From: a virus | Lineage: Duplodnaviria; Heunggongvirae; Uroviricota; Caudoviricetes | IMG/VR virus record: IMGVR_UViG_2563366923_000001 | Location: 1-21,431 of that record | DNA length: 21,431 nt | Reading direction: 5' to 3' (one strand) | Part shown: one piece after another, positions 1,447 through 19,019 of the stretch | Layout of the letters: each line of letters begins with the position of its first letter | Position numbering within the stretch: the stretch's first letter is position 1 | Notes under the pieces: generated by a model | Databases searched by the model: none | What the model was told of the DNA's origin: nothing | Seen by the model: only the letters and a program-made list of their open reading frames with translations | Made by a program: the position numbers and the translations under genes

Positions 1447-1533
1447 GCTGAAAAACATAACCCATAAAATGCTAGCTGTACCAGGAACCACCTCCTTAGC
1501 CTGTGTAATCTCCCTTACACGGGCTTATTTTTT
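1447..1533 (+). ncRNA. cyaR: CyaR (RyeE) Hfq-dependent small RNA
   Basis: Sequence GCTGAAAAACATAACCCATAAAATGCTAGCTGTACCAGGAACCACCTCCTTAGCCTGTGTAATCTCCCTTACACGGGCTTATTTTTT recognised as CyaR; 3' stem-loop (CCTGTGTAA/TTACACGGG) plus U-tract; lies between yegQ and the P2 remnant as in E. coli. Confidence 0.7.
1507..1533. repeat. P2 att core copy (attR, ogr-proximal): AATCTCCCTTACACGGGCTTATTTTTT
   Basis: 27-bp sequence is the reverse complement of the P2 core AAAAAATAAGCCCGTGTAAGGGAGATT as I recall it; an identical copy lies at 20928-20954. Confidence 0.8.
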
Positions 1534-1595
1534 ACGTACAACAAATTGAAATAAAAGGATTTATTTCTGGTCACGTCCACACATTGACCACATCG

Positions 1596-1630
1596 ACAAA
1601 AAAGCCCCTCGACTGAGGGGCTTTCTGTTT
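1596..1630. terminator. Bidirectional rho-independent terminator (GCCCCTC-GACT-GAGGGGC between an A6 run and a T-rich run); terminates ogr on the minus strand
   Basis: 7-bp GC stem at 1604-1610/1615-1621, preceded by AAAAAA and followed by TTTCTGTTT, 14 nt downstream of the ogr stop. Confidence 0.55.
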
Positions 1631-1634
1631 GTAA

Positions 1635-1853
1635 TTACATCCACATAATTTGCTGCCCTGACGGCAACGGGTGTGGCCTTACGGCGTGGACTTCTCCCGG
1701 CTTCACGATGTATCGCTGTACCGACTCATAAGTGATGAACGTGGCGCTGCAATTCACGTTCTGACACTGGTGATAACGCTCTTTTGTCGTGTCAGTGATA
1801 TAGCGGCTTGTACGCGCATGTGCGGCATGCTGGCATAAAGGACAATGAAACAT
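1635..1853 (-). CDS. ogr: Ogr, zinc-finger late-gene transcription activator (72 aa)
   Basis: Internal Met of the 93-aa track ORF gives MFHCPLCQHAAHARTSRY..., with CxxC...CxxxxC zinc-finger cysteines and length 72 aa matching P2 Ogr; ATG at 1853-1851. Confidence 0.9.
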   Translation of the reverse strand: MFHCPLCQHAAHARTSRYITDTTKERYHQCQNVNCSATFITYESVQRYIVKPGEVHAVRPHPLPSGQQIMWM

Positions 1854-1934
1854 CGCGAGCACCTCTTCCGGTTTTATTGATGGTGCCATTTTAGTTAATT
1901 TATCCTTATAAAACAAACAGATAAAATAAAAACA

Positions 1935-3098
1935 TCACTCATCATCTTCTGTTTCGTACTCCACATCAGAAAGCCTGACCTCAAGCTCTAAAGACGTCGT
2001 GAAGCCGCTATTATTCAGAAAATGTGTCACCTTAGTGATTGTCCAGTCCTGCTCGTCTATGACGCGCTTAAAGCCTGACACTTTAACCGGTGTTTCCGTG
2101 TAAATATCTGCCCGACCGGTAGCCAGGCTGATGGAGAACTCCGCCACACCCCGTTGCAGTTTATCCCACTTCGCCTGAGCGGCGCGCATGGCCTGCGCTT
2201 TCGTGGCATATACCGTAGTCAGGGCAAAAACGTTGTCAGCCTCACCGGCCATGTATTCACCTTCGCGCGCTTCCGGTACTTTTGGCGCTTTCTTCTGCGT
2301 GACCGGTTTCGCTTTCGGGTGCTCCAGTGCGCGCAGGTGTTTTTCTTTCTTTTTGCGTTTCAGTTTTACCTTCTGCTTTTGCGGCTTCGGGTCTTTGGTG
2401 TGTAACCACTTTGCCGTTACGCCGGTGTAAGCTCCACGGTCAGCAATCGCAAAATGATGACGGTCGCCGTCGCTGCGGGTGATGGTAATCTGCGGGATTT
2501 TTTTACCGCTGGCCGTCACCCCCTGCCCCGCTTTGAGAAACAACAGTTTTCCCATTTTTACCGACACCTCACCGCCGTTGCGTTCTGCAAGACGGGTCAG
2601 GAATTTCGCATCAGACTCCTGCGACTGGTCGATGTGCGGGATTTTAATTCCGGCCAGTGACGGAGCGACACTGGCTTCCAGCCTGTTACGGGAGGCTATC
2701 GCTTCAACAATCGCACCGAGTGTGGTGTCATGCCAGGAGCCTTCCCGGCGGGAATTGAGCGTCCCGCGAAAATCTGCACTCCGGGCGCGGATGGTGACCA
2801 CATCCGGCGCGCCCCGGTGTTCAACCTCATCAACGGTGAATTTCCCTTTGCATACCAGGGCAAAACCTTTCCAGCCGATATACACCGTCAGGACAGCGCC
2901 ACGAACCGGTAGCCCGACCTGCCCGTCGGCATCGTTCAGTTCAATATCAAGCTGGTCAGCCTCAAAGCCCCGGTTATCCGTCAGGGTCATGCTCATCAGA
3001 CGGTCGCTGATATTGCCGGTAATATCCCTGCTGTCGAGCATCAGCATGTAATCCGGCGTCAGCGTACTGCCTGCATCAAATGTCAGTGCATCCAGCAT
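1935..3098 (-). CDS. D: P2 gpD-like tail protein (387 aa)
   Basis: 387-aa ORF, same length as P2 gpD and in the conserved position between U and ogr; start ATG overlaps the U stop (TAATG). Confidence 0.88.
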   Translation of the reverse strand: MLDALTFDAGSTLTPDYMLMLDSRDITGNISDRLMSMTLTDNRGFEADQLDIELNDADGQVGLPVRGAVLTVYIGWKGFALVCKGKFTVDEVEHRGAPDVVTIRARSADFRGTLNSRREGSWHDTTLGAIVEAIASRNRLEASVAPSLAGIKIPHIDQSQESDAKFLTRLAERNGGEVSVKMGKLLFLKAGQGVTASGKKIPQITITRSDGDRHHFAIADRGAYTGVTAKWLHTKDPKPQKQKVKLKRKKKEKHLRALEHPKAKPVTQKKAPKVPEAREGEYMAGEADNVFALTTVYATKAQAMRAAQAKWDKLQRGVAEFSISLATGRADIYTETPVKVSGFKRVIDEQDWTITKVTHFLNNSGFTTSLELEVRLSDVEYETEDDE

Positions 3099-3577
3099 TA
3101 TCCCGCCCCCGTCATCCCCGTGAATCTGGTCGCCATACTGCCAGCTTTACCGATGAGCGATTCCGCCTGTTTACCGATATCGCCATAAAGCGCGGCCAGT
3201 GATTCATCAACGCGGGTGAGCGACAGCGTAAAATCAATTTTCCGGGGTGTGCCGTCTGCAAAGAAAATACTCCCTGTTTCACTTACCCTGCTGATGACAT
3301 ACATGCCGTAAATCATGCCGGTGCCATCCAGCAACGGCCACGCCCGGCCTTCATCTGCCATCAGCCTGAGCGTGGTCATCGTCAGCTTTCCGCCGGTCAG
3401 TTCGGGATAAAGCACACCGGCAAGCGTCATGTTTTCCTCACCCACACCGAGAAACTGGTAGGCCTCCCGTTTACCGATACGGGAATTTGACGGCCAGCGA
3501 TAATCTGATTCACGCTGCATGGTCTGGTGTGGCAGCGTCTGGCGCATAAAAACAAACATACCTAACGCGAGCATCAT
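3098..3577 (-). CDS. U: P2 gpU-like tail protein (159 aa)
   Basis: 159-aa ORF matching P2 gpU in length and position upstream of D. Confidence 0.82.
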   Translation of the reverse strand: MMLALGMFVFMRQTLPHQTMQRESDYRWPSNSRIGKREAYQFLGVGEENMTLAGVLYPELTGGKLTMTTLRLMADEGRAWPLLDGTGMIYGMYVISRVSETGSIFFADGTPRKIDFTLSLTRVDESLAALYGDIGKQAESLIGKAGSMATRFTGMTGAG

Positions 3578-3806
3578 TTTTCGTCACCTCCTTAACCGAA
3601 TCCGGGAAGCCACCGAGCGACCACTCCATTGACAGCGCATCGTCATCAAGGCCGAGGTCTACCGGTGCGCTGCCGTTCATCCCCGCACCGCGATAGTTTT
3701 CGAGCTTACGGGTCAGTTTTGGTAGCGTGACGGACTTCGCGACGCCCTGATAGCTGTAGCCGTTCAGAAAGACGTTCATTAACTTGAGTTTGCGCGGCAT
3801 TGCCAT
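3510..3806 (-). pseudogene. FII: Truncated tail tube gene FII (N-terminal about 72 codons fused to out-of-frame sequence upstream of U)
   Basis: ORF begins MAMPRKLKLMNVFLNGYSYQG... (tail tube N-terminus) but is only 98 aa against 172 aa in P2; its last about 27 codons read through the U start region in another frame; genes E, E' and T that lie between FII and U in P2 are absent. Confidence 0.7.
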
Positions 3807-3818
3807 CGGTCAGGCTCC

Positions 3819-5009
3819 TTAATTGCTGTTAACCGAGGTGACCAGATTTGCCAGGTATTTATCGGTAATACGCTGGCGCAGGGTCAGGTTTTCGAGAGGA
3901 GGCACCGGGGTATAGTCGTAGTCGATATACAGTTTTCCGGCCTTGAGGGTTTCCGCATCGTTGGATTCTTCGCTGAACCAGCAGGTCGCATCCACGATAT
4001 AGCCGTTTGTTTTCAGTTCACGGAATTTGGCATTGATGCCGTCAACGATGTCGCGAATCAGCGTTGCGGTGATGGGCTTGTCCACCGCCCACATGTGCGC
4101 CTCAGCCATCGTGTCGGCCAGCACCTGCGCGGTGCGGGTGTAGTTTTCAAAGAGGAACAGCGGGTCATCAGAGCAGGTACGGTTACCCCAGAAGCGGAAA
4201 CCGTCGCGGCGAATCAGCGTTGTGACGCCAGACTCGTTCAACAGGTCAGCATCGGTGCCGGACTCCTGCAAATCCCAGAATACAGATGCGCTGATGCCGG
4301 TAACACCGTTTACCCCGACGTTGGACAGCGTTTTATGCCAGCCCTGCTCCTGGTCGATTTTAGCGCGCAGACCCAGCGCACGGGCGGTGGCATACGCGGT
4401 GGCGGTGGTACTGGTGACCGTATCCCATGCGAGGAAATCCGGCCAGATGACCATCAGCTCACGCTGGCTGAAATTCTGGCGGTAGGCTTTCACCTCGGAA
4501 ATGGTCTTACAGCCCCATGCGCTGATATATCCGAAAGCGCGCAGCTTCTGACAGACGGATGCTAGTGCAACAGCCACCTCTTTGGTATCCAGTCCCGGCA
4601 CACCGAGAATACGCGGTTTAACACCGGTTACCGACTCCGCCGCCAGCAGGGCTTTCAGTCCGGTGTACTGACCGTTTTCGTCGGTGGTGCCGATGATATT
4701 GGAAACGGTCTGCGCAAGTTTCGTTTCCTCGTCGTCGCCGGTGCCGTCTTCCACACGCACGACAACGGTGACCGGTTTTGACTGGTCGGCGATGGCCTGC
4801 AACGATGCCGCCAGCGTGCCTTTTTTACCGGCCTTTGCAATTGCGCTCTGCACATTGGTAATCAACACCGGTTTATTGAGGGGGAAGGTTTCCGCATCCG
4901 CATCGCTGGCCGTGCAGACCATGCCGACAATGGCAGTGGATACGGTGGAAATGACGCGGGTGCCGTCGTTAATCTCCAGCACCTGCACGCCATGATGATA
5001 GTCACTCAT
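3819..5009 (-). CDS. FI: P2 gpFI-like tail sheath protein (396 aa)
   Basis: Track ORF 3819..5162 has an internal start MSDYHHGVQVLEINDG... at 5009-5007, preceded by a GGAG RBS; the 396 aa from that Met matches the P2 FI length. Confidence 0.85.
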   Translation of the reverse strand: MSDYHHGVQVLEINDGTRVISTVSTAIVGMVCTASDADAETFPLNKPVLITNVQSAIAKAGKKGTLAASLQAIADQSKPVTVVVRVEDGTGDDEETKLAQTVSNIIGTTDENGQYTGLKALLAAESVTGVKPRILGVPGLDTKEVAVALASVCQKLRAFGYISAWGCKTISEVKAYRQNFSQRELMVIWPDFLAWDTVTSTTATAYATARALGLRAKIDQEQGWHKTLSNVGVNGVTGISASVFWDLQESGTDADLLNESGVTTLIRRDGFRFWGNRTCSDDPLFLFENYTRTAQVLADTMAEAHMWAVDKPITATLIRDIVDGINAKFRELKTNGYIVDATCWFSEESNDAETLKAGKLYIDYDYTPVPPLENLTLRQRITDKYLANLVTSVNSN

Positions 5010-5100
5010 CCGTTTAACTCCGTGGTTAATGGGTGCAACTATTTTCTGTTGTGCAGAGCATGAGACGCTATTTGACCTGGCTGGCCAGTGGATGAAACAA

Positions 5101-5133
5101 CAGATAAAGAAAAGGCGGGCAATCAGCCCGCCA
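5101..5133 (-). terminator. Putative rho-independent terminator on the minus strand (GGCGGGC-TGATT-GCCCGCC followed by TTTTCTTTATCTG)
   Basis: 7-bp GC-rich inverted repeat at 5113-5119/5125-5131 with a T-rich tract downstream on the minus strand; sits between the Z/fun-position cargo and the FI promoter region. Confidence 0.45.
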
Positions 5134-5378
5134 GCCTTGATTTGCACTCTCTCAATTTCCAACTGACAAAATACGTAGCCAAAACGCTATCAAATCTGAC
5201 AGCCTGCTTTGAGCGAGAAACAGACATGGATGGCATACAGTGAAAGTAGCCGCACAATGAGCATCACTGCAATTCTGAATTCAAGCTCTAATACTATTGA
5301 GACCGTATCATACAGTCACTCGCAAAAATTACTTTACCTGAGTGAAAAAATTGATTCCAAGCAAAATGAAAACTTGTA

Positions 5379-5406
5379 ATTCATTATTACATGCATAATA
5401 ATGAAT
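5379..5406. promoter_or_regulatory. AT-rich 11-bp perfect inverted repeat (ATTCATTATTA-CATGCA-TAATAATGAAT) about 100 bp upstream of the OLD-like gene; candidate operator
   Basis: Read directly from the sequence; a TATATAAA -10-like element follows at 5420-5427. Confidence 0.3.
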
Positions 5407-5508
5407 AAAAACTTGAGCTATATAAACCAAAGTTGTTCCGAATAGTCCGTTGAGACATCACTCGAATTATAGGAATACAAGGTTTTATTTTTATAAGGAA
5501 TCGCTCCC

Positions 5509-7773
5509 ATGGGTTTGCAAAGCATAAGAATAAAAAACTTACTATCATTTAATGATGTAATAATAAATTCCCTAGAGGATGTAAATTGCATTGTAGGGAT
5601 GAATAATGTTGGCAAATCCAATCTTATGAAAATATTGAAATATTTTTACGACAAACTTGACGACATAAAAGTAATACCTCCTGATTTTCATTCTAGTTAT
5701 ACTCCTTCAGGGTCAATAACATTGACTTATGATGTAACAAGAATAAAGAGAATTGTAATGAACCCTAATAACAATGGTCGCTTTCACAAGCATATTTATA
5801 ACACTTTATTTAAGCCACAATCATTCATCCGAAAGCCGCAGAAATTCTGTCTTCCTTTCATATCTCCTTTGGGTTTCCAAAGAAAAAGCACTTATAGCAT
5901 TACACTCACAATTTCTAAAGATGACTCCGTAACTTGGTCAATTAGCACACCAAATGCCCGGCATCTAATTAAAACTCTATTTCCTTTTTTCCATATTGAA
6001 ACCAGACACATTGACTTATACGACTGGAATAGCATATGGAAAATGCTCAGCAGTATAAATTCCTTTAATTTCTCTGAAATAAAAAAAGAAGAACTCCTTG
6101 AGTTTTTGAATGAGAAAATATCAACTAAGCGGGGTAGTTACAAGAAGTATATAGAAAGAGTTGAAAATGTAATCCATACTAAACCTTACACCTATAAAGA
6201 TAAAGTCGTTAATTATCTAAAAATAGTTTTAGATGGCGATATTTTCATAAATAAAGGTGAAGAACTACATGTTCAGTCGGATGGCACGAACTCTCACAAA
6301 TATCTTGAAATTATACTTAGCCTATTAATTTCATTAACAAGAACAGAATTTATCAATCCAATTATATATATTGATGAACCTGAAATTGGGCTACATCCAA
6401 AACTTAGCGAGAACTTTATTGAGAACATAAGCCTGACATATAAAAAGTATGATAAAACCCATGAGGAAATTGAGCCTGGAAAATATTCAACACCATATCC
6501 AACTCTTATATTTAGCACTCATTCTCCGAGTTTACTAAAACTCACGCTAAAATCTTTCTTACATAAACAGCAGGTTTTGCATTTTTCAAAAGAACGTGAC
6601 AACTCGACCAAAATTTCAAAATTAAACTCTAAATATAATGACATTAGATTTATAAATATGCTTAGCGATAATGAGGCCCGTCTATTCTTTAGTGAATACA
6701 TTCTATTTGTAGAGGGCGCCACAGAAGTTGAATTGTTTAGAAATTATAATCTGCAAAAGCTGTTTCCAGTACTTAAAAGGTTAGATGTGTATGATTGCGA
6801 TGAAGTAATGTTGAAAAATATAAACCCCAGCTACTCAAATGCAGCCATCCCATTTCTAGTAGTAAAGGATATTGATCAGATTGCCGTTGTTGACTTCGAA
6901 CATGAACAATTTAAATTTAATTCGAAAGGGAAATCAATTATTAATAAAATCATTAAGAGAGATAAACTACACTATTTTTCGACATACCAAAAACCTTTTC
7001 TTAACGCAGCAAAATTTCTTTTAAGCCAAGATGAAAGGAAAGTAACATTCAGTGAAAATGGCCTAAAATTCAGACACTTCAGTATAGGCAGAGTTATAAG
7101 CGCAGTTAATTTTTTATCCTCTAAAGATAATGTTTATTATACTTCTACAACGATAGAAGGCTCATTGATCAATGAATTCTCTTTAGAGACATTCTCTTTA
7201 TGGATCATTGACATAGTAATGAGAAGCTTTAATGTAAATAATAAAAACCCTGTAAAAATGATTAATGCTCTGCTGCAAAAATACGATATTAAAACCCAAT
7301 CAAAACAACTTTTTCCCAAAATACTTTCAAAATGTGAAACAAATCATGACCTACCATTGCGACACATGAGATTATTGAAAATCATTAAAATTAGATATGC
7401 TAAAGAAATAATTGATGAGTTTAAAAAAACCATCCCCGACGTAAAAGACCAAGTTGCTATCTTGCGCCTTATTTTTAGTGGCAAAACAGAAACTCTTGTA
7501 AGTATAGAAATGCATTATAAAATTGATCAAAAACCGATACGGCAAGATATATTGGATTATATCAAAGCATTAAAGTCAGAAAATTTCTCTTTTATGAGTT
7601 CTTACATAGGAAAGACTTCTGGATGGGTTACAAGCTTCATTGATTTTAGCCTTAATCATTATTCAGCCCTAGATAAAGAAAATGTCGAAAAAAAATTCCG
7701 CTTGGCTTTTCCTGAAATTTCGCATATCATCGATCATGCTTCTTCTTCGATAGAAGCTGGAGGGCTCAAATGA
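5509..7773 (+). CDS. OLD-family nuclease-like protein: N-terminal ABC-type ATPase, central TOPRIM domain, about 300-aa unassigned C-terminal extension (754 aa)
   Basis: Walker A GMNNVGKSN near the N-terminus; Walker B/D-loop IIYIDEPEIGLHP; H-loop FSTHSP; TOPRIM glutamate motif LFVEGATEVELF and DxD-like VVKDIDQIA; AAGGAA RBS before the ATG; strongly AT-rich relative to the prophage backbone. Confidence 0.75.
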   Translation: MGLQSIRIKNLLSFNDVIINSLEDVNCIVGMNNVGKSNLMKILKYFYDKLDDIKVIPPDFHSSYTPSGSITLTYDVTRIKRIVMNPNNNGRFHKHIYNTLFKPQSFIRKPQKFCLPFISPLGFQRKSTYSITLTISKDDSVTWSISTPNARHLIKTLFPFFHIETRHIDLYDWNSIWKMLSSINSFNFSEIKKEELLEFLNEKISTKRGSYKKYIERVENVIHTKPYTYKDKVVNYLKIVLDGDIFINKGEELHVQSDGTNSHKYLEIILSLLISLTRTEFINPIIYIDEPEIGLHPKLSENFIENISLTYKKYDKTHEEIEPGKYSTPYPTLIFSTHSPSLLKLTLKSFLHKQQVLHFSKERDNSTKISKLNSKYNDIRFINMLSDNEARLFFSEYILFVEGATEVELFRNYNLQKLFPVLKRLDVYDCDEVMLKNINPSYSNAAIPFLVVKDIDQIAVVDFEHEQFKFNSKGKSIINKIIKRDKLHYFSTYQKPFLNAAKFLLSQDERKVTFSENGLKFRHFSIGRVISAVNFLSSKDNVYYTSTTIEGSLINEFSLETFSLWIIDIVMRSFNVNNKNPVKMINALLQKYDIKTQSKQLFPKILSKCETNHDLPLRHMRLLKIIKIRYAKEIIDEFKKTIPDVKDQVAILRLIFSGKTETLVSIEMHYKIDQKPIRQDILDYIKALKSENFSFMSSYIGKTSGWVTSFIDFSLNHYSALDKENVEKKFRLAFPEISHIIDHASSSIEAGGLK

Positions 7774-7893
7774 GCTGACGCATGCCGTCACTTGCTCCAG
7801 CAAACACTAGCTCGGATTGTCTTGCGTCCGCTAAGCCGCTTTAAGCCTCACGGGGTGTAAAGATGTTATTGGTATCGAAGAGGAAGCTTTTAC

Positions 7894-8991
7894 ATGAAAC
7901 ATAAAATTAATAAAATTAACAATGATTTTTATAAAAATTTTTATCTAAGAGAAACATTCTCCGATGATATTATTATGACTCACGGAGTCCCTGAGATTTC
8001 CAATGACGATTATAAAAGCATTTCATTAAAGAATAGATTATGTTTCACTATAAGAAAAAGCTCCCCGCATAAAAAAATACAAGAAAGACTTATAAAAAAT
8101 TTCCTAGTAAAAGTTCCTCTTAGCTCACCTGCAATTGCCTATCGTAAAAAATTAAACTATTTGAATTTTCTAGAACCTCATATCCATGGTGAGAACTTTT
8201 GTCGAATTGACTTATGTAATTTTTTTCATAACATAAACTATAACTTTGCAAGGGAGTGTTTCAAATCCTACTTTGAAGATGAATATCTGGTAAATAAAAA
8301 AATCAAAGTTATTGATGCATTTTTAAATAGTTTATCTATTGAGATTGTAGTCAACAATAAAAAGAAAAAAATATTTCCAATGGGATTCGCCACATCACCT
8401 TTCATATCCAATATAATTTTCAGAAAGTTAGATATTTTAATTAAAAGTTTGTGTGACAAAAGAAGCATCATTTACACTCGTTATGCTGATGATATGCTTT
8501 TTTCGAGCTCCGGGAAAGACAAACTTCTTGGAAGTGAACATTTTGACAACGAGATATCAACTATTGTCAATACGGCAGGACTGTCCCTCAACAAACATAA
8601 AAAAATATTTAAGAAAGGCATAATCTCACTAAACGGCTATGTAATAGAAAATAAAAATGGAGGGGGAGAGAGAGGGAGTATAAGAATATCTAATGGAAAA
8701 ATGTATTTAATACGGAAAGCACTAGATAAATTTAAAAAGGGATATTCTAAAGAGCATATTTGCAAAAAAGTATTTTCTGTTAAATCACCAACTGTCAAGT
8801 ATAATAACAATGCAGATCAGTTTGTAACGGATTTTTATAATTCACAATTCTCTAATAAGTTAGCTGGTTATCGTTCATATTTAATATCATTAGTAAAATT
8901 TAATGATAAATTCAGATGTTTTCACGAAAACGAAATCACCAAATACTCAGTGATTATTGATGAAATTTCTAATGCACTGCTAAAACCCTAG
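7894..8991 (+). CDS. Reverse transcriptase, retron/Abi-like (365 aa)
   Basis: RT motifs in order: RIDLCNFFHNI (motif 2 region), FPMGFATSPFISNIIF (motif 4, compare retron PQGxxxSPxLSN), YTRYADD (catalytic YxDD at 8482-8493), LSLNKHKK and ISLNGYVI (retron-like motif 6/7 region, but no canonical VTG); GAGGAAG RBS; AT-rich; no maturase or endonuclease domain. Confidence 0.8.
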   Translation: MKHKINKINNDFYKNFYLRETFSDDIIMTHGVPEISNDDYKSISLKNRLCFTIRKSSPHKKIQERLIKNFLVKVPLSSPAIAYRKKLNYLNFLEPHIHGENFCRIDLCNFFHNINYNFARECFKSYFEDEYLVNKKIKVIDAFLNSLSIEIVVNNKKKKIFPMGFATSPFISNIIFRKLDILIKSLCDKRSIIYTRYADDMLFSSSGKDKLLGSEHFDNEISTIVNTAGLSLNKHKKIFKKGIISLNGYVIENKNGGGERGSIRISNGKMYLIRKALDKFKKGYSKEHICKKVFSVKSPTVKYNNNADQFVTDFYNSQFSNKLAGYRSYLISLVKFNDKFRCFHENEITKYSVIIDEISNALLKP

Positions 8992-9413
8992 CCTTAGAAA
9001 GTTAATGTTTTGGCCCTAAAGCAAGGGCCTTAATAGTAAAAATAGTTACCAGCATAAGTATTCCTTCAACTAATCACACAAATTAACGTTAGCAACGTTC
9101 CCTTTTTACACCGTCTGAGCACTAAGCTGTCGGTCATTCTGGTCTACCATACTATTATACGTAACATCCAAGAGTGTTCCTGCAAACGGTCGTAGAAAAT
9201 GCGGGCTTCGCCATTTTCTGGCCGACGCCGGTCTCGTCGAGTTCTTCTGACTGTTCAAGTGCAAATGCGCCTGTAGGTATCCCTACAAAAGAAACCATCA
9301 ACTTTTAGATAGTATCTGGCACTCCAACTCCCGCTGTTGACTCGGAGCGGACTGTCAGATTAGGCTTTACTCTGTACCATAGATACGTTAGCTCACTCCA
9401 GAGATCATACAAC

Positions 9414-9941
9414 TTATTGCGGCATGTCCGGCCATTCAGGATTTGAAGGGTCCACACGACTGACCAGAACGCTGTAGCGTTCCCATGCATCCAGTCGACT
9501 GCGCTCCTCACCTGTTGCCATATTCAGCCTGACAGCGCGCTCCAGCGGCAAAATTACGGATTCAGCTTCGGAAAGCAAAGCTGCCTTATGTAATTCCGCT
9601 AGTTTCTGCTGTTCGTCTGCCGTATAAATCCGCTTAATCACGGCACCATCCTTAAACATCCATTTACCTGAGTCATCAGCACGCCGGTTGGCAGTAATAT
9701 CAGGAACCTCAACGACGCTAAAACCTTCAGGATTAAGCGTTGAAGCATCTCTGGTGATGGCGACAATAATATTATTTTCATCGTAAACAATCTTTATTGT
9801 GTCTGGCTGAAAATTACTTACTTCCTCATACCAGTTTTTTCCGTCTTCGGACCATAACCAGATAACATCAAAATTCTTTGTTAGCTGATATTGCTCTTTT
9901 GTTTTTGGATTACCTGACTTAATGTTCTTTAAATGCTGCAT
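9414..9941 (-). CDS. G: P2 gpG-like tail fibre assembly protein (175 aa)
   Basis: 175-aa ORF matching P2 G in length, immediately downstream of the tail-fibre gene remnant. Confidence 0.8.
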
Positions 9942-9944
9942 TAC

Positions 9945-11030
9945 TTACACCTGCGCAACGTTATACCATGTGCCATTGATGTATTTTTGTATCGGCCTGA
10001 AGATGGCCTCATCATCGCCATCTACTTCACCAATGATTCTTAATCCGGTAATCGTGTGTCCGGCTTTTTCATAACGACCACCTCGCGCCATCAATTGAAC
10101 AACTCGCGTACCCAGGCGAACATCTTTCACATAGCGGGAATCAAAATTCCCCCAGTTGCTGGGTTGCATCTGACCGTTAACAGCAAATATTACCGAGTTA
10201 TCTGTATTTCGCTGGCTATAGAAATGCCATCCGGACTCATCGCCTAACTCTGCAACCACTGGACGGTTGGAAGCACCCCATAAATTAAAGGTAATATTCT
10301 TCGTGGATGTGTTAGAGCTGGATAGCGAGAACTTTTTACTATCCCCTGCCTGAATATTTTTAAAAGCAATAGCCACTCCATTCTGAAAACGGAATACACG
10401 CTGACTGTTAGCATAAACATCAAGAATACCGTCTCCATTCTGTTTAAATCCGGTATCATTATCACCAAGGACAATAGAGCTACCACCTAGTGCATTCGTC
10501 GTACCAACTCCAAGACAGCCATTAATGACGGCATTAACAAGAATATTTAGTGCATCCCATTTCAGCGTCATCAGGTCTTTTGTTGTGGTACTCTGGCGGC
10601 TTCTCCATTTGAAATATTCATTGCCGTTATCCCCCGTTTCAAACCACATGTATGAATCAGCGTCACCATCGGCATCATTTTTAAATCCAATCTTCGCCCA
10701 GTCAGTATTTCGAATCCAGGCAAGGATTGAGTCGTTTTCAAAAGTAATCCCGCCGGACAAGGTATCGCCATTCTTTTGCACCGCGTTCCTGGCCCTGTTT
10801 ACCGTTTCCTGCAAACCGAGGTATTCGATAACGGCAGCAATGGTCGCTTTAGCCAGAATATCCCGCCCGACTTTTGTCAGGGTTGCCAAACTGGCAACAT
10901 CATTCCCCGTAAAATACGGAAAGCTGTCTGCCGCAGTAGCAAGCCCCGCCAGCGCCGTCAGAGTGGCATCTTTCGGTTGCTTACCCGCAAGCGCATTAGT
11001 CATGGAGGTAGCAAAATTCGGGTCTCGGCC
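9945..11030 (-). pseudogene. H: Tail fibre gene H remnant (C-terminal half, about 360 codons) lacking its N-terminal half
   Basis: Reading frame continues upstream of Met 11003 as ...DPNFATSMTNALAGKQPK..., which I recognise as an internal H region; upstream of about 11027 the frame decodes nonsense that overlaps J in another frame. P2 H is 669 aa. Confidence 0.72.
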
Positions 11031-11860
11031 AGCGGTGCAGTCAGTTCGACACGCTGCACGCCTTCCACATGCAAAGCGGCATAAATGGCAGACAGACGGA
11101 TGTCGCGCCCCAGCCGGTGCTGTGCCGTGATGTACGCTTCCAGTTTTTTCACGGCAGCAGCGCGTATGGGTTCGCTTTCGGGACCAGGGTAAAGGTAAAG
11201 CGTGGCGTTTATCTGGTATTCAACGATGGCGGCAGACTGCACGGTCACGCGGTCGGCCACCGGCCTGACGTCCTCGCCATTAAGGGCGTTACGCACCACC
11301 GCCAGCAGGTCTTCGGATGCGACACCGTTATTTTCACGTGACAGCACAGAGATGGTGACGCAGGCCGGAGACGGACTGGTTACAGAAATATCCGCGACAC
11401 GCCCGTCGGCACTGCGACCATGATACTGATAGGCCCCCACCGACCCGGCGACGCTTAAACCTTCAAACGCCTGCTGAATACGCAGACGATAATCCGTGTC
11501 AGATTCCATCACTGCCGGTGTCGGCGGGATGGTCGAATCATCTTCCAGGGTGATAATCAGGCGCGTGGTGTTGTAATTGGCACCAATCACATCAAGGTCA
11601 TTACCGGCAGCACAGGCCAGCATCACCGCCCGTGCGGCCTCATTCACACGCTGACGCCAGATAAGCTCACGATAAGCATTTTCCTCCAGCAGTTTGACGA
11701 GAGGCTCAGATTCCAGCGTCAGGGTACGGGCGACCGCCTCCTGCTGGTCTTCCGGGTAAAGGGAAATCAGTGTCGCCTTGCGTTCGGCAAGAATGGTTTC
11801 AAAGTCCAGCTCCTCAACCACATCCGGTGCGGGTAGCTGGTTCAGGTCGATAATCGGCAT
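11000..11860 (-). pseudogene. J: Baseplate gene J with altered/truncated C-terminus (286 aa against 302 in P2); gene I absent
   Basis: ORF starts MPIIDLNQLPAPDVVEELDF... (J N-terminus); the last about 8 codons (ETRILLPP) read into H-derived sequence; the stop overlaps the H-frame Met (ATGA). Confidence 0.62.
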
Positions 11861-11864
11861 GGTT

Positions 11865-12212
11865 TCAACTCACAGGAATGGTTAACGAAAGTGGCTGGCC
11901 GGTGTCGTTGTGCTGGCCGGTTAACGTGACCGTCATTCGCCCGTCAAAACTGCGCTCAGTGGTGACGGATGACAGGGTGACGCGGGGTTCCCATTTCAGC
12001 ACCGCCATGTAACAGGCGACCTTAATCTGCAACTCAAGCGCCGGGGTCTGCGGCTGGTCAATCATTGACGCCAGCAACGAGCCGTAATCACGACGCATCA
12101 CCCGCGAGCCGACCGGTGTGCGCAGGATATCGCCGATACTCTGGCTGATATGCTCAAGGTCAGTGACAGTCAGGCCATCACTGCGATTCATTCCGAGATA
12201 ACGCGCAGTCAT
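11865..12212 (-). CDS. W: P2 gpW-like baseplate protein (115 aa)
   Basis: 115-aa ORF, same length and position as P2 W (between V and J). Confidence 0.82.
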   Translation of the reverse strand: MTARYLGMNRSDGLTVTDLEHISQSIGDILRTPVGSRVMRRDYGSLLASMIDQPQTPALELQIKVACYMAVLKWEPRVTLSSVTTERSFDGRMTVTLTGQHNDTGQPLSLTIPVS

Positions 12213-12565
12213 AGAGGTCCCCCTGTTGTGCCGCCGCTGTCGCCGGGGTGTTTATGGGTATGAAGTACCTTACCGTTTGATGAGAGTTCACCGCCGGTGT
12301 GTTCAATGTTGCCGCGCATCGTCCCGCCCTTCTGCACTTCCAGCGTGCCGGTAATCAGCCTGTTGGTGCAGACCACCTCCGGTGTGTCCAGGGTGACGCG
12401 GGTTGATGCTTTCACCATGACCACCGGCACCGTGGCGGTAACAGAATCAGAAGCCGTCACGCTGGCCGTTTTAATTCCGCTTACCGTAAGTGCACTGGTT
12501 TCGGGTTCATACTCAATCATCGCTGCCGAGACCCGCATCATGTGGCGCTGTGCGGGACTCGTCAT
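12209..12565 (-). pseudogene. In-frame M'-V' fusion remnant: first about 16 codons of terminase small subunit gene M joined to the C-terminal about 100 codons of baseplate spike gene V
   Basis: ORF begins MTSPAQRHMMRVSAAM (recalled as the gpM N-terminus) then continues IEYEPETSALTVSGIKTASV... (V C-terminal region); 118 aa against 211 aa for V; sits directly after the N stop, where M starts in P2. Confidence 0.62.
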
Positions 12566-12568
12566 CGG

Positions 12569-13060
12569 TTACGCTCCCGGCTCTGCGGTCGCTTTAGCCG
12601 GTGTGGAGAAATCACCGACCTTAATTTTTTCCACCAGACAACCGGCGGCGTAGTCCTCCACCACGTAATCAATGTTCATTGACTCGTAGTTCTCCACGCG
12701 ATCGAGTTTCGGGTTTTCCTCAATCACGCGGCGATGGCTGTCATCCATGTAGTAGATGGACAGGTTTTCCAGCTTCGTGATGAGCATCGCATCAGCCGGG
12801 AAGTACGGGACGCGTACCGCTGGCAGGTTGCCGATGCGTTTCTGGCTGATGATGACGTCAGCGGCCAGCATTTCGCTGTTGTCCTGCTCCTTGTTGACGA
12901 TGGGAAAATACTTGTCCGCCAGTAGCTGACGTCCCACAATCACCACAAGGTCAGGGTCTTCCTGATACCACGGCTCAATCAGGTTGTTGGTCGCATCCAT
13001 CACCAGTGCATCAAGGCTGGCATAATCACCGCCCTTATCCGTTCTGGTCGGGTGAACTGT
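12569..13060 (-). pseudogene. N: Major capsid gene N remnant (C-terminal about 157 codons only)
   Basis: Frame reads ...KGGDYASLDALMMDATNNLIEPWYQEDPDLVVIVGRQ... to the stop at 12569; an upstream in-frame stop at 13061-13063 and no N-terminal about 200 codons; P2 N is 357 aa. Confidence 0.68.
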
Positions 13061-14051
13061 TCAACCGGGGACGCGCCAGCGCCGCCGAACGCGTGGAAAT
13101 CGACGTCAGTCATAACGCCCTTGCCGGTGGGCTTCTCTGTGCGGACGGCCAGTGGCGGCAGATTGTCACCATTGAGGACGCCCTGAAAGGTGGCTGCACG
13201 CTGTTCGACATTGAGCAGCTTAAACGCGAAAACAGCGCCGACGATTTTAAAAACCTGTTCATGTGTGAATTTGTTGACGACAAGGCGTCGGTATTTCCCA
13301 GCAGGATTTCAGCCGCTTTGTGCTGGATTTTCTGGTGTTCGGCAATGCGTTTCTGGAAAAGCGTTACAGCACCACCGGTAAGGTCATCAGACTGGAAACC
13401 TCACCGGCAAAATATACCCGCCGTGGCGTGGAAGAGGATGTTTACTGGTGGGTGCCGTCCTTCAACGAGCCGACACCTTTCGCGCCCGGCTCCGTGTTTC
13501 ACCTGCTGGAGCCGGATATTAATCAGGAGCTGTACGGCCTGCCGGAATATCTCAGCGCCCTTAACTCTGCCTGGCTGAATGAGTCGGCCACTCTGTTCCG
13601 CCGCAAGTATTACGAAAACGGCGCACATGCCGGATACATCATGTACGTCACGGATGCCGTGCAGGATCGCAACGATATCGAAATGCTTCGCGAAAACATG
13701 GTGAAGTCGAAAGGCCGCAACAACTTTAAAAACCTGTTTCTCTATGCCCCGCAGGGAAAAGCCGACGGCATTAAAATTATCCCGCTCAGTGAAGTGGCGA
13801 CGAAGGACGATTTTTTTAATATCAAAAAAGCCAGTGCCGCAGACCTGCTGGACGCGCACCGCATCCCCTTTCAGTTGATGGGCGGCAAGCCGGAGAACGT
13901 CGGGTCGCTGGGCGATATTGAGAAAGTAGCAAAGGTCTTTGTCCGCAATGAGCTTATCCCGTTACAGGACAGGATCCGCGAGATAAACGGCTGGCTCGGT
14001 CAGGAGGTCATCCGATTTAAAAACTACTCACTGGACACTGACAACGGCTGA
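13040..14051 (+). pseudogene. Q: Portal gene Q remnant: no start codon, reading frame switches near 13280-13300
   Basis: C-terminal 243 codons (13320..14051, frame 3) are an intact portal-like sequence; the N-terminal part is in frame 1 (track ORF 13006..13578); frame 3 has a stop at 13275-13277; frame 1 upstream of about 13040 is antisense to N; position next to cos fits P2 Q. Confidence 0.62.
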
Positions 14052-14056
14052 ACATC

Positions 14057-14078
14057 GCCGCCTGCGGGCGGCTTTTTT
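14057..14078 (+). terminator. Rho-independent terminator after Q (GCCGCC-TGCG-GGCGGC plus TTTTTT)
   Basis: 6-bp GC stem and T6 tract beginning 6 nt after the Q stop codon. Confidence 0.7.
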
Positions 14079-14220
14079 ACACCCCGTCATCACGCCCTCA
14101 CACGTTCGCCACTGTACAAAACACCCCGCAGACACACCAACGCCCCGGCAGGCCGACTAAACGCCATCACGACGCGCTCAGACGCTGAAAAAATAAAATC
14201 AGCACCACCGCCAGCGCGCA

Positions 14221-14239
14221 GTGCTTTCCCCGCCTCGCC
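14221..14239. other. P2 cos cohesive-end sequence (reverse complement of GGCGAGGCGGGGAAAGCAC)
   Basis: GTGCTTTCCCCGCCTCGCC at 14221-14239 matches the 19-nt P2 cohesive end as I recall it, and sits where cos lies in a P2 prophage (between Q and the tin/old region). Confidence 0.72.
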
Positions 14240-14331
14240 CGCCCGCTTCATGGGGCGGTTTTAATGCAGTTACATAGATACTATGGATCCGCACCAGTCC
14301 TGACCGCACGCAGCCTGAACGGACATCCCCG

Positions 14332-14365
14332 ACGCATGCAAAAACATTCACTTGTTGCATGCAAC
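14332..14365. promoter_or_regulatory. Tandem GCATGCAA palindromic motifs (CGCATGCAAA at 14333-14342; perfect palindrome TTGCATGCAA at 14355-14364) upstream of the 313-aa cargo gene; candidate operator/promoter
   Basis: Read directly from the sequence; the two sites are 23 bp apart; a related ATGCATGCAA occurs at 16698-16707 upstream of the divergent cargo operon. Confidence 0.35.
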
Positions 14366-14477
14366 GGCTTATTTAATGACAAATCAACTTAAATTTACAA
14401 AATCCACAGGTATGGATACTTTGCGAACATGATAGGCTTACGAGAATTATCGTGCCTGTTTTTGAACGGAGAAAGTT

Positions 14478-15419
14478 ATGCAAGGTGAAGTTGACGAACA
14501 GCAACCAAATGAGATTATTTCGGAGTTTGGATACTATCCAGTAGAAGTTAACATTGAGACTGAACAATTTTCTTTGCGTACTTTACCCGGTCTTATTGAG
14601 AAAGTGGAACGTATTAACAATGATAAAAACGTTGTTAATGGTTGGATATACCCTGGGAATCGAAAGGTATATAACCTTAATGGTGACACATGCACAATGC
14701 CTTATAGTTACCGAGTATTCGGCATGCCCAAAACGCACACACTAAAATTAAAAAACACATCCTCGTTAGAAACTCTCAACTTTGTTGTGTGGTGCCTCTC
14801 TTTTTTCAAGGGTATAAGATTGACAACCACTGACGCTGGTTTTCTTGATGCAACCACTATCAAGCCCACTAAGTTAACCGACTTTATTCTCGTTGGATGC
14901 TCTGAAAAAGAAGTAATAGAGCTAGCACTTAACTATATAAAAGACAAACAAAAAGATGATCGCTCCATTAAAAGAATAGCTGCGGTGATACACTCCCTAT
15001 TCCTGTCACATAACCCACTATACCTTTCCTTTGAGAAATTCCAGTATCTTTATATGGCTCTTGATTGCTGTTTTGCTATAGCATGGGATGAAAGGGATAA
15101 AGTCATTAAAGAGAAAAAACCATCTCATCAAAATAGAGTATATTGGACGTGCGAAAATTACGGTGTAAAAATCCCGTCATGGGCAACAGATGAATGTAAT
15201 GTTTCAGTTATACGCAATGATAATTTTCATGAAGCCATTTTTAATGGGCAACCGCTTGGTTTCTCTAGTATCAATGATTGTCAATATGGTAGCGATATAT
15301 TGCTACAAATGCAGGCTCTGGTATGTCGTCTACTAGCGGCAATACTCTCTGTAAATGATCGTAAATATATCGCATCTACAATCAGCTCGATAGAGTACCA
15401 TTCATTAAAATTAACTTAA
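14478..15419 (+). CDS. Hypothetical protein (313 aa), AT-rich cargo at the tin/old position; no recognisable motifs
   Basis: Long ORF with a GGAG RBS 8 nt before the ATG; composition contrasts with the prophage backbone; first gene after cos. Confidence 0.6.
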   Translation: MQGEVDEQQPNEIISEFGYYPVEVNIETEQFSLRTLPGLIEKVERINNDKNVVNGWIYPGNRKVYNLNGDTCTMPYSYRVFGMPKTHTLKLKNTSSLETLNFVVWCLSFFKGIRLTTTDAGFLDATTIKPTKLTDFILVGCSEKEVIELALNYIKDKQKDDRSIKRIAAVIHSLFLSHNPLYLSFEKFQYLYMALDCCFAIAWDERDKVIKEKKPSHQNRVYWTCENYGVKIPSWATDECNVSVIRNDNFHEAIFNGQPLGFSSINDCQYGSDILLQMQALVCRLLAAILSVNDRKYIASTISSIEYHSLKLT

Positions 15420-15491
15420 TGCTAACGCCTCACTTCGCTCGTTGTTCAACCCCGCCAGCCTGAAAACAAGTTTCACGACTGGCGGCGTTCT

Positions 15492-15644
15492 CTATCGTCT
15501 GCGTGGTGGTGGCGCAACTCTGGACTGACCGATATAGTTAAACCGCCCGTAATTATCCCGGACTATTTCGGCACACCCGACCAGCTCGTCAGGCGTCAGA
15601 TTTTCGTTGACCATAATCTGCTGTAAACGGTGAACAATGGCCAT
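15492..15644 (-). CDS. Possible small ORF (50 aa, MAIVHRLQQIMVNENLTPDELVGCAEIVRDNYGRF...), function unknown
   Basis: ATG-to-stop ORF below the track size cut-off, with an in-frame upstream stop and a weak AGG-type RBS; backbone-like GC content; could be a remnant of a phage gene. Confidence 0.2.
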   Translation of the reverse strand: MAIVHRLQQIMVNENLTPDELVGCAEIVRDNYGRFNYIGQSRVAPPPRRR

Positions 15645-15738
15645 CAACCTGACACTTTTGGTGTTATATGTGGTATCTCACATGAGATTACTGACCAAGG
15701 TGCATCTTGGTTGACTCATTTCATATCCATCCACACCA

Positions 15739-16419
15739 CTACATCTTTATTGCATATTTATTAAAAGACGCCCAGTTCAATAAAAAAACATTATTCATAT
15801 ACCATTCAATATGATTTTTATTTTTAGATTGACTGTCAAGTAGCACACAAACATCAACCTGTTTATCAATCAATTTTGCAATATAAACCACAAACTCAAC
15901 ACTCGAATATCTCTTTGTGCCTAGCAAATATAATATTTCATCTGACAAATAATTAGACTCATGTGAAAAGACATTATCATTTAACAAAATCAACCCGCCA
16001 ATCGAGTCATTTAAATCCAAAACATCCTTTGTTGCATTTATTTGCTTATTAGCTTCCTTAACTATCTTTGTTTTAATATTTTCATAAGCAAAGTTCATTA
16101 TATCATTTCTAAATCGCTTTGAGTCTGGGTGTCTTTTTATCAACTCTTCTAAATGAATAGCACCATGCCAGTTTTTTGCAAGCCAACTATCAGTTTTAAC
16201 CAACTCATTCAGTTTATCATTGACATTCTTGACCCTGTCAGAAAAAAGACTTTTCATCTCCAAAATTATCTTTTTATTATCAATAAGATAATCTGCCATC
16301 TTGCGATTCTGACCATCCTTCATCCGGAACTTATGATGAATATCATCAATAGAAATCCCTTTTTCATGCTCAACAATGAATCTCTTAACATTGTTTTCTA
16401 ATTCGCTGTATTGTTTCAT
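15739..16419 (-). CDS. Hypothetical protein (226 aa), AT-rich cargo; no recognisable motifs
   Basis: ORF with a strong GGGGGAAAG RBS; 27 nt downstream of the DUF2158 gene on the same strand (operon-like). Confidence 0.6.
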   Translation of the reverse strand: MKQYSELENNVKRFIVEHEKGISIDDIHHKFRMKDGQNRKMADYLIDNKKIILEMKSLFSDRVKNVNDKLNELVKTDSWLAKNWHGAIHLEELIKRHPDSKRFRNDIMNFAYENIKTKIVKEANKQINATKDVLDLNDSIGGLILLNDNVFSHESNYLSDEILYLLGTKRYSSVEFVVYIAKLIDKQVDVCVLLDSQSKNKNHIEWYMNNVFLLNWASFNKYAIKM

Positions 16420-16446
16420 ACTTTCCCCCGTGAATTTTATTATGAT

Positions 16447-16638
16447 TCACTTACGTGGACGACACAGCATACCACTTTTACTCTCTGCTATTTCCAGTAA
16501 ATCAATGGAGAATGACTCCTCGTGCAAAACTCCTTCTTTATCATGCCAAATACATTTCGCATGAGTTTCAGTAGAGTCAGATACAGTCATTTTAAATCCA
16601 CCGCTTTTCAAACAAACAACATCTGCAGGCTTTAACAT
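16447..16638 (-). CDS. DUF2158 / YodC-like small protein (63 aa)
   Basis: Internal start MLKPADVVCLKSGGFKMTVSD... with GGAG 7 nt upstream; the DVVxLKSGGxxMTV signature resembles YodC-family small proteins; the track ORF 16447..16722 over-extends the N-terminus. Confidence 0.55.
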   Translation of the reverse strand: MLKPADVVCLKSGGFKMTVSDSTETHAKCIWHDKEGVLHEESFSIDLLEIAESKSGMLCRPRK

Positions 16639-16764
16639 TTTTGTCTCCAACATTTTTAAGTAATGCATTATAACATAATGATATTGACGTAGATTTAATG
16701 CATGCAACCATATAAAAAACAATCAATTACAGTCAAAACTACTTATACTGTATAGATGAGATCC

Positions 16765-17781
16765 TTACTCAAATTGATGCCAGAATCCCGACCACTCATC
16801 AGCGACCGGATACGTGAATTTTTTCCCGTCATAATTTACGGTCGCGCCACGCGCCAGCGCCTCAAGCTCCCATCGCTGCGGCCTGATACCGTTCTGAGCA
16901 AGGTCAACGCGGATACGGGTGATTTGCAATCGTTCAGACCGGGTCAGTCTGGCCGATGGCGCTATTTCATGTGGTTTTAACGGGCTTCCGTTTCTTTGCT
17001 GACGATTTGGTGTTTTCAGGCCGTGTTTTAATGCACCCCTGAGCGTCCTCACGACCTCCGGGTCATTCCATTCGATAACACCGTCATCAACCAGATTTAG
17101 CACTGCTGCGGCGTGTTCAGAAGGTGTGGGAGCCGGTAACGAAGTATCACCACCGGTGAGCTTTCCACAGTTATTGACAGGACTCCGAGGCGCGGCGATG
17201 CCGCTTTTTAACGTCAAAGGCTCAACGACCGGCACTTTCGGCACAATGCGCCAGTCCGTCGTTCTGGTGATATGAATATGACGCGCGCCGAGATGCGGCG
17301 CGTAAATGCCGACCACTCTCTCGACCTCTTCCTCGTACTCGTTAACGTCATCCGACGGGCTACGGGCAACCCTGACAGTCTGACAATCGCGCGGAACATT
17401 TGCCCCACCCTGCGCGCTGATATACAACGCAAAATCACCACTGTCTGCGGCAGCGCGTGCAGCCTCGACGCGTTCGTCAAACTCATCAGCAATGCTGACG
17501 CCGCGAGGCAATTTGCGTAGTTCACGGTAAGCCCCCATTGTCGGCAGACCAACCGTTTTAAATTGCGGAATGCGCCACGTTGACGCCCATGCGGTAACAG
17601 CAGCAGCTGTGTCTTTCAGCGGCCTGCCGGTATCATTATCGAGCTGACCATCCAGTGCATAGCCGTCGATGTTTTTTGAGATGTATTTCGCGATATATCC
17701 CGCAGCACCGCCCCGGTTAAGATGTTTTGTTGTTCCTGAATAAAATCTACGTTGTCCGGCATTATCAGCTCCTTTTATCGT
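16765..17781 (-). pseudogene. A: Replication initiator gene A remnant (C-terminal about 335 codons, with the YIAKYISK active-site region, but no N-terminal about 430 codons and no start codon)
   Basis: Frame is open from 17781 to the stop at 16765 and reads ...KHLNRGGAAGYIAKYISKNIDGYALDGQLDNDTGRPLKDTAAAVTAWASTWRIPQFKTVGLPTMGAYRELRKL...; the rolling-circle Rep Y-x-x-K-Y motif is present; no in-frame start before Met 17538; P2 A is 761 aa. Confidence 0.68.
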
Positions 17782-18067
17782 TCAGTTTCTTAAATTCATC
17801 AGCGCAATAGCTGGCGATTTCTGTCATTAATTTCGTCAGTTCATCCACGGAGGAGATTTGCTTGTGGAATACAGCGCGTTTAACAAGTAAATTGACCACC
17901 TCAGACAGGAGGTTTAATTCATTCTGATAAATCGCGATAACAGATTCAGTTATGTCGCGTTTTTCTTTATCAAGACAAAGTTGAATAAGAGACAAATCAC
18001 CATTTTCCATAACGGCGATTTTTAAGGCGTTATTCAGTAATACAACTGAATGAGAACAGGACATCAA
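17765..18067 (-). CDS. Hypothetical phage early-region protein (100 aa)
   Basis: ORF in the B-to-A interval, where P2 carries small orf80-83-type genes; start overlaps the stop of the upstream 74-aa ORF (ATGA). Confidence 0.45.
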
Positions 18068-18288
18068 AGTACCTCCCCGCGAGACAATCCGATATTGTGA
18101 AATTTTTCCGACTCCTGACTGAGCAGCTCGACTATCTCCACGCGGGATAACTCCGCCTTTGTGATGTGGCGAATCATGGCGTCAAGATGAGAAGAAAAGC
18201 GCGTCGCAGCGTCGGCCTGTGCTTCGGTTCTGGCCTGTTGCAGCAGTAATGCGTATTTACCGCACTGATTTTCAGAAACTGTATGCAT
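18064..18288 (-). CDS. Hypothetical phage early-region protein (74 aa)
   Basis: ORF translationally coupled to the downstream 100-aa ORF; lies in the early operon between B-like and A. Confidence 0.45.
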
Positions 18289-18351
18289 GACTTTCTCCAG
18301 GCAAAAAGAAGCCCCGCACGATTAAGTGCGTTAAAAACTCTGGTTAATTAC

Positions 18352-18858: not shown

Positions 18859-19019
18859 ACCCTCCGGCTTTTCAGAAAGGTCAGAGCCTTTTTTAACGGA
18901 CTCTGTTTTTTGGTGCGGATAATGATTCCCTTACGCCCCTTACCGTGGGTGATGGTGAAGTCAATCGCCCTGGGGCTTTCGTTACGCAGTAACTGAGCAA
19001 TACAACGAGGCTCATTCAT
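18849..19019 (-). CDS. Small early-operon ORF (56 aa; orf78-position)
   Basis: Internal Met at 19019 preceded by an AGGAGAA RBS; lies between cox and the B-like gene. Confidence 0.35.
   Translation of the reverse strand: MNEPRCIAQLLRNESPRAIDFTITHGKGRKGIIIRTKKQSPLKKALTFLKSRRVWK

Follow-up and report, generated by a model that had tools for sequence, protein, structure and literature searches.

Positions 3593-3598 of the window (the whole 21,431-nucleotide stretch of DNA that was analysed) are very probably the scar of a microhomology-flanked deletion of 3,228 bp in the F operon of a P2-like prophage, made by short-homology illegitimate recombination. The prophage adjoins cyaR/yegQ in Escherichia coli, in a clone that includes strain KTE233. 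The junction, called J1 here, is the first of six in the same element. Taken alone it records one prophage becoming unable to make a tail, a textbook decay step, and the deletion itself is ordinary prophage decay of low novelty. The sole part that is surprising to a specialist is that the endpoint in the tail tube gene FII is used again by independent rearrangements. If confirmed, this re-use offers a case, open to testing, in which temperate phages in the wild are inactivated non-randomly and in a site-directed way, and if the site is truly a hot spot, a cut made by a specific agent would preferentially disable the tail operon and so ground prophages. The setting is also informative: a near-isogenic intact prophage in UPEC85 makes all six deletions reconstructable to the base, a retron Eco8 defence cargo survives while structural genes go, and a single locus shows successive stages of decay: the intact prophage, the window, and the K-12 remnant PR-X.

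The J1 junction and the chimeric tube gene

FII lies on the minus strand and has 71 normal codons, after which it is fused to the last 7 nt of the tape-measure gene T. The break was placed by blastn against P2 (NC_001895) and four intact relatives. Window 1507-3598 aligns to P2 24382-22291 and window 3593-5219 aligns to P2 19068-17438, the 2 blocks sharing 6 bp, and identical blocks with the identical overlap are recovered against vB_EcoM-12474II and UPEC85. Together with these overlaps, a three-way alignment of the window, the U/T-side parent, and the FII-side parent puts J1 at 3593-3598 (minus strand) as a 6-bp microhomology, TAACCG (CGGTTA on the coding strand), with a seamless join and no filler bases. 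In intact phages CGGTTA is present at P2 19063-19068, which is FII codons 70-72 (TCG GTT A), and at P2 22291-22296, within GAC GGT TAA at the end of T; one copy is left at J1. The loss runs from P2 19069 to 22296 and takes out FII codons 72-172, E, and E'. T, which spans 19850-22297 in the NC_001895 annotation, is lost up to its final codon and stop, which are kept. Anchors on the 2 sides are spaced 3,267 nt apart in UPEC85, FDAARGOS_1285, P2, 12474II, and 730V1, versus 39 nt in the window and in eight other J1 carrier loci. The frameshift chaperones E and E' and the tape measure T are accordingly absent from between FII and U in the window, the T remnant being the 7 nt at 3592-3598 (minus strand; P2 22291-22297) that include the TAA stop at 3592-3594.

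A sequence-only reading of this DNA had placed a junction near 3590, joining FII just upstream of U, with E, E', and T lost and roughly 3 kb missing compared with P2, and had proposed alignment to the P2 FII-E-T-U region as the way to find the exact breakpoint and any microhomology. The alignment gives both, and each of those statements is borne out, with the refinement that the join is to the end of T and not to intergenic sequence. The same reading decoded about 72 codons of tail tube followed by about 27 nonsense codons across the U start, and had U beginning normally at 3577; these also hold, as follows.

The chimeric ORF, FII', encodes 98 aa at 3510-3806 (minus strand) and consists of FII codons 1-71 (3594-3806) followed by 27 codons in another frame. 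Up to residue 71 it has the same sequence as the 172-aa P2 FII. The rest, residues 72-98, is KEVTKNDARVRYVCFYAPDAATPDHAA, an out-of-frame reading of the T-U intergenic stretch and of U as far as its nt 68, so that FII' reads over the U ribosome-binding site and start before its frame stops at 3510. Pfam Phage_tube (PF04985) matches FII' over profile positions 1-70 of 165 only. The exact protein is public under the NCBI name 'major tail tube protein [Escherichia coli KTE233]'. U itself is an intact tail protein of 159 aa at 3098-3577 (minus strand), matching PF06995 over 1-120 of 120 positions and identical to P2 U at 155 of 159 residues; its ATG is at 3577 and its Shine-Dalgarno sequence, AGGAGGT, is the complement of 3586-3592. 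Judging from this overlap, translation of U is probably disturbed by ribosomes on FII' that read through its start.

The 2 P2 parents account for every base at and around the junction, with no mobile-element end there, and matches to the att core within the prophage are at its ends only, with none at J1. The sequence GGGAGCTT, 3 nt to the right of the break, has a weak resemblance, seen by eye only, to the att arm GGGAGATT. By our calculation, a junction overlap of at least 6 bp has a probability of about 1e-3 by chance; four of the six junctions of this prophage overlap by 6-10 bp and all six carry microhomology of 2-10 bp. A short repeat with one copy kept, and with no filler, insertion sequence end, or evident recombinase core, has the features of short-homology illegitimate recombination, a process that in E. 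coli resembles microhomology-mediated end joining, or MMEJ (PMC11372144). The event would have taken place between the CGGTTA direct repeats. Either a nascent or broken 3' end terminating in CGGTTA may have re-annealed 3.2 kb downstream, as a template switch in replication, or a double-strand break may have been mended by microhomology end joining. For simple slippage, two 6-bp copies lying 3.2 kb from each other make a poor substrate.

With the tube cut to 71 of 172 residues, and with the E/E' chaperones and T gone, we expect that no tail could be built; this expectation rests on the established roles of tube, chaperone, and tape measure. FI, U, D, and ogr are intact and lie downstream of the same promoter. 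Late transcription needs replication and Ogr, and the replication gene A is truncated in this prophage.

The prophage and its intact relatives

The defective prophage is 19.4 kb long (1507-20954) and lies between 2 copies of the att core (P2 24356-24382), at 1507-1533 and 20928-20954. Its int ORF (19835-20848) encodes a P2-type integrase of 337 aa. Identity to NC_001895 is 97.3% over 2,092 bp and 94.9% over 1,632 bp, colinear with FI-FII and U-D-ogr, and other P2-like members have 96-99.9% identity to blocks of the window. The order of domains, sheath, partial tube, GpU, GpD, and Ogr, is as expected for a P2-like F operon. On the minus strand the intact neighbors of FII' are, in addition to U, the tail sheath FI of 396 aa at 3819-5009 (PF04984/PF17482), D of 387 aa at 1935-3098 (PF05954; 387/387 identical to UPEC85 D), and the late-gene activator ogr of 72 aa at 1635-1853 (PF04606; 72/72 identical to P2 Ogr). 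A homolog of the pF promoter/activator site is at about 5035-5106, a position inferred from the P2 annotation. At the chromosomal boundary, the CyaR sRNA gene is found at 1445-1530 on the plus strand (Rfam, 100.7 bits), and because its 3' end overlaps the att core at 1507-1533, the prophage supplies the end of cyaR.

Of the relatives, the UPEC85 prophage (NZ_CM137000.1, between yegR and trhP/yegQ) is the closest. It shares the integration site and gene order of the window prophage and has its retron Eco8 cargo, likewise between G and FI, with 99.9% identity over window 3593-11034 (6 mismatches in 7,443 bp plus one indel region on the FI side) and identical FI, D, and Ogr proteins. Unlike the window prophage, it is complete: its 33.4 kb include full-length FII, E, E', and T, all of the head, lysis, baseplate, and replication genes, and other cargo in the old/tin slot. 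The U-D-ogr blocks of the 2 prophages differ by 9 substitutions, 8 of them within 112 bp inside U (window 3353-3464), causing 5 amino-acid changes in U. This patch is 130-245 bp from J1, and by its sequence it looks like a short gene-conversion tract from another P2-like phage.

Full FII-E-E'-T-U is found as well in P2, vB_EcoM-12474II, 730V1, FDAARGOS_1285, and LP50-1. With a 300-bp probe across J1, the two halves match apart from each other in about 1,590 out of 5,426 complete genomes of E. coli, where T is annotated beside U, and the joined form is in 0 of the 5,426. An exact 24-nt search for J1 gave 0 matches in GTDB representatives (two patterns), IMG/VR, and JGI metagenomes. Public assemblies in NCBI, Logan, and ENA contain the exact 98-aa chimera, on 17 or more independent contigs. 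The window-type loci compared, 14 in all, are 100% or nearly identical over the region shared with the window. J1 is rare outside one E. coli clone plus a few others. A literature search for P2 deletions at yegQ or in FII/T found nothing specific.

These occurrences bear on 2 other accounts of the short FII. One is that a short FII without E and T is the normal architecture of the lineage; the remaining genes are intact and colinear, and on that alone a compact variant could be suggested. On the alignments it is already refuted, and we give it practically no weight: UPEC85 has the full set at the same chromosomal site, which makes the short form a deletion and not a lineage trait, as the sequence-only reading had it, the five other intact relatives agree, the joined form is missing from the collections just named, FII' covers 70 of 165 Pfam positions and ends in out-of-frame codons, and the T stop codon persists. 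The other account is that J1 is an assembly or chimera artefact. Multiple P2-like prophages in one genome do hamper assembly, and many of the carrier contigs stop inside the prophage. The number of independent contigs argues that it is not, however, since the identical junction comes from NCBI, Logan, and ENA assemblies through different pipelines, one carrier is a 4.9-Mb scaffold running through the whole prophage and both chromosomal flanks, and a 6-bp overlap cannot give a de Bruijn mis-join; an artefact is therefore extremely improbable.

Six deletions and the surviving cargo

Relative to UPEC85, the window prophage has six internal deletions that come to 14.4 kb in total. Besides J1, they are J2 in H/J at 11025-11034 (1,403 bp lost, 10-bp overlap), J3 in V/M-N at 12517-12523 (4,556 bp, 7-bp overlap), J4 in N/P at 13039-13040 (2,569 bp, 2-bp overlap), J5 in P/Q at 13294-13299 (916 bp, 6-bp overlap), and J6 in A/orf82 at 17728-17729 (1,768 bp, 2-bp overlap). 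In addition to the J1 losses, the genes cut are A, P, Q, N, M-S, V, J, I, and H, with fragments left of Q, P, N, V, J, and H. The survivors are int, C, cox, B, small early ORFs, a 3' piece of A, and cos, and W, G, FI, U, D, and ogr are whole, as are both variable cargo slots. Given the tiny point-mutation distance to UPEC85 beside six deletions, it is deletion and not base substitution that dismantles the element. J2-J6 occur together with J1 in the window-type assemblies that span them, and no intermediate without J1 was found among those assemblies.

Encoded in the Z/fun slot, between G and FI, is an intact retron defence system of the Eco8 type (type I-B), on the plus strand. It is composed of an ATPase-TOPRIM/OLD-like effector of 754 aa (5509-7773; PADLOC ATPase-Toprim_I-B, 1e-210), the UPEC85 copy of which is named 'retron Eco8 family effector endonuclease' by RefSeq, and a reverse transcriptase of 365 aa (7894-8991; PADLOC RT_I-B, 3e-106). 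At the gathering threshold, Rfam reports no retron msr/msd and no RNA besides CyaR. The old/tin slot (14269-16781) has cargo unlike that of P2 and unlike that of UPEC85, with ORFs of 313 aa (14478-15419, plus strand) and 226 aa (15739-16419, minus strand), each with 0 Pfam or PADLOC matches. One possibility is that the two ORFs form a defence or moron module that is still uncharacterised, the slot being a known hot spot for such cargo.

J1 on three haplotypes

The identical J1 is found on three flanking haplotypes, namely the window clone, the pair of loci L004/L008, and L010, which has another U haplotype. L004/L008 are about 2.5% diverged on both sides, including yegQ, and have different cargo and different additional deletions. 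Their prophage is at the same yegQ-yegR site with only J1 in common with the window; it has lost int-C-cox and most of the structural genes, and its cargo pair of 310 aa and 234 aa is also in the intact FDAARGOS_1285 prophage. L004 differs from the window as near as 11 bp to J1 (window 3609). This variant and two others, all synonymous, co-occur in the intact FII of strain LP50-1, so the variants pre-date the deletion. Over FII' as a whole, the 2 main J1 haplotypes have six differences, all of them synonymous. Neither candidate for a direct parent of L004 is accepted: FDAARGOS_1285 matches on the FI side only (99.5% vs 97.5%), and the match to LP50-1 is limited to about 310 bp. P2-like phages are too mosaic for the parentage of L004 to settle whether J1 had a single origin or multiple origins.

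Re-used breakpoints in FII

To survey how FII breaks elsewhere, the chimeric protein was searched against a collection of 5.8 billion proteins, and the best 120 of 294 clusters were sorted by where they depart from FII, which covers breaks from about codon 56 onward. Most truncated FII forms in these best 120 of 294 clusters are frameshifts, and 12 rearrangements were found. Three different deletions end at P2 19068 (window 3593). They are J1, with its partner at 22291 and an overlap of 6 nt; L026/P0002, an in-frame FII-U fusion with its partner at 22672 in U and an overlap of 1 nt; and L029/P0003, an in-frame FII-E fusion with its partner at 19449 in E and an overlap of 3 nt. The retained FII piece ends at the same base in all three despite microhomology of 1, 3, and 6 nt, as expected for a fixed 3' end that re-anneals downstream.

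A second FII breakpoint, P2 19053-19057, is 11-15 nt upstream of the J1 endpoint; it corresponds to window 3604-3608 (minus strand), where it is unbroken, and five rearrangements elsewhere use it. Four have single junctions: L032/P0070 from 19054 to 23737 in D (7-nt imperfect overlap), L035/P0039 from 19054 to 23914 at the end of D (5 nt), L036/P0064 from 19053 to 24052 in ogr (1 nt), and L037/P0067 from 19054 to 21357 in T (2 nt). The fifth, L038/P0058, is an inversion with reciprocal junctions at 19053 and 19057 joined to 18473-18478 (5-6 nt). On its single Logan contig (L038 1801-3646), P2 18473/8-19053/7, comprising the FI 3' end and FII codons 1-67, is inverted with both reciprocal junctions present and inverted microhomology of 5-6 nt. 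Several of the events at re-used endpoints are each in multiple independent assemblies. Other true rearrangement endpoints in FII codons 72-140 number about 4 in the best 120 of 294 clusters. Pattern scans for hot-spot junctions gave 0 further junctions in IMG/VR (two scans) or JGI metagenomes; what matched, in one IMG/VR scan and in JGI, was one divergent phage, intact and carrying a synonymous change, plus two 19-mers that match by chance.

A further coincidence is in D. The D-side boundary of K-12 PR-X (L012 4184-4821) falls at about P2 23742-23745, where the sequence runs into the att core (GTGTA/GCAGAG). This is within a few nt of the D-side endpoint of the unrelated FII(66)/D' deletion of L032/L033 (P2 23737-23745; L032 6194-6200). 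P2 23737-23745 is a possible second recurrent endpoint.

The local sequence at the FII sites is GGTGGCTT/CCCGGATTCGGTTA/TCTGGGAG. It can fold into an imperfect 7-bp hairpin, with the 2 break sites falling at its foot and at the edge of its loop. Known sources of a precise break were considered. The P2 A-protein ori nick is rejected as the cause, the FII site being dissimilar to it. Canonical Chi (GCTGGTGG) has 0 occurrences on either strand of the 33.6-kb P2 genome NC_001895 by regular-expression scan. Cleavage by TnpA-REP requires a GTAG-bearing REP in cis (PMC3333891), and none was identified at the FII site. CRISPR self-targeting, gyrase sites, and pseudo-att sites were looked at by eye only, with no support.

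The parent prophage contains about 45,000 repeat pairs of at least 6 bp that are equally good, so without a hot spot the re-use of one among them is very unlikely, and the same J1 on three haplotypes together with the re-used FII endpoint indicates that the choice of site is probably not random. A nucleotide-precise lesion in FII, whether a nick, a stalled 3' end, or a structure-specific cut, would repeatedly start rearrangements, and J1 would then have arisen more than once, an explanation that we regard as evenly balanced between right and wrong. It is favored by the three deletions with different partners at 19068, the five further events at 19053-19057, the few other endpoints among the clusters examined, and the presence of J1 on three haplotypes. 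With a fixed end at 19068, moreover, recurrence of J1 is plausible, since CGGTTA at the T end is one of four perfect 6-nt partners downstream. Against it, the survey is small (12 rearrangements from the best 120 of 294 clusters), the stability of the hairpin CCCGGAT-TCGGTT-ATCTGGG (-7.7 kcal/mol, z = -0.95) does not exceed that of shuffled sequence, P2 is without a Chi site, and any likeness to the P2 ori nick site is unconvincing. Mosaicism of P2-like phages at the scale of a few hundred bp also keeps a single origin of J1 viable, which would have been followed by conversion tracts stopping at heterology or by helper-dependent spread of a phage carrying J1 only, and this we consider about equal in probability to recurrent origin.

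A further explanation is that FII(1-71) is kept by selection, for example as a poison subunit against superinfecting P2-like tails, which would account for the clustering at codons 66-71. Several independent defective prophages do keep 66-71 residues of FII behind an intact FI and promoter, and the differences between the main FII' haplotypes are silent. Selection on the length of a protein cannot give nucleotide-identical endpoints, however, the synonymous variants were already in an intact phage and are uninformative about selection after the deletion, and the C-terminal tails are wholly different between events, so this explanation is improbable. Returning to a precise lesion, the chances seem to us level that FII holds 2 nucleotide-precise hot spots (P2 19068 and 19053-19057) behind at least 8 independent deletions or inversions, with J1 recurrent and a specific nick, stall, or structure-directed cut grounding prophages. 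Resting on 12 rearrangements from one protein search, the hot spot is an open lead, not a conclusion.

Comparison with known systems

A chromosomal locus with myoviral sheath, tube, and baseplate genes and without a functional head module brings to mind an R-type tailocin. That needs a complete tube, chaperones, tape measure, and baseplate, whereas here the tube is truncated, E, E', and T have been lost, and deletions reach into V, J, I, and H, so the identification is rejected.

In rolling-circle replicons such as M13 and pC194, deletions occur with one endpoint fixed at the nick site. The FII events are similar in that one endpoint always falls on the same nucleotide and the other differs from event to event, with little or no homology. 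They differ in that FII is not known to contain a nick site and the FII site is unlike the ori nick site of P2.

The MMEJ-like recombination of E. coli, as described in the literature on the Spi- assay (PMC11372144, PMC3375238), is like J1 in being seamless, with a few bp of homology present once and with no evident recombinase site and no mobile element. That literature has genetic requirements, with suppression by RecQ/SSB and processing by RecBCD/RecJ, whereas J1 is known from sequence alone. J1 is also unlike the generic model in that its endpoint is re-used by other events, which the model does not predict.

The nearest comparison by locus is PR-X of K-12 (ogrK plus yegZ, a D fragment), which is likewise a P2-type remnant, at the site beside cyaR/yegQ, with the ogr end kept. 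In K-12, however, only about 640 bp are left (P2 23742-24382), joined directly to the att core, and the window prophage represents a much earlier stage of decay. It is not the direct ancestor of PR-X, the shared part having 97.9% identity, nor is the window itself the K-12 remnant or any known complete genome, since K-12 has decayed further and differently and J1 is in none of the 5,426 complete E. coli genomes. Published work describes grounded prophages decaying by deletion with the loss of structural genes (PMC6379469), and defence cargo sitting in the variable slots of P2-like phages (PMC9122126); the window prophage fits both pictures.
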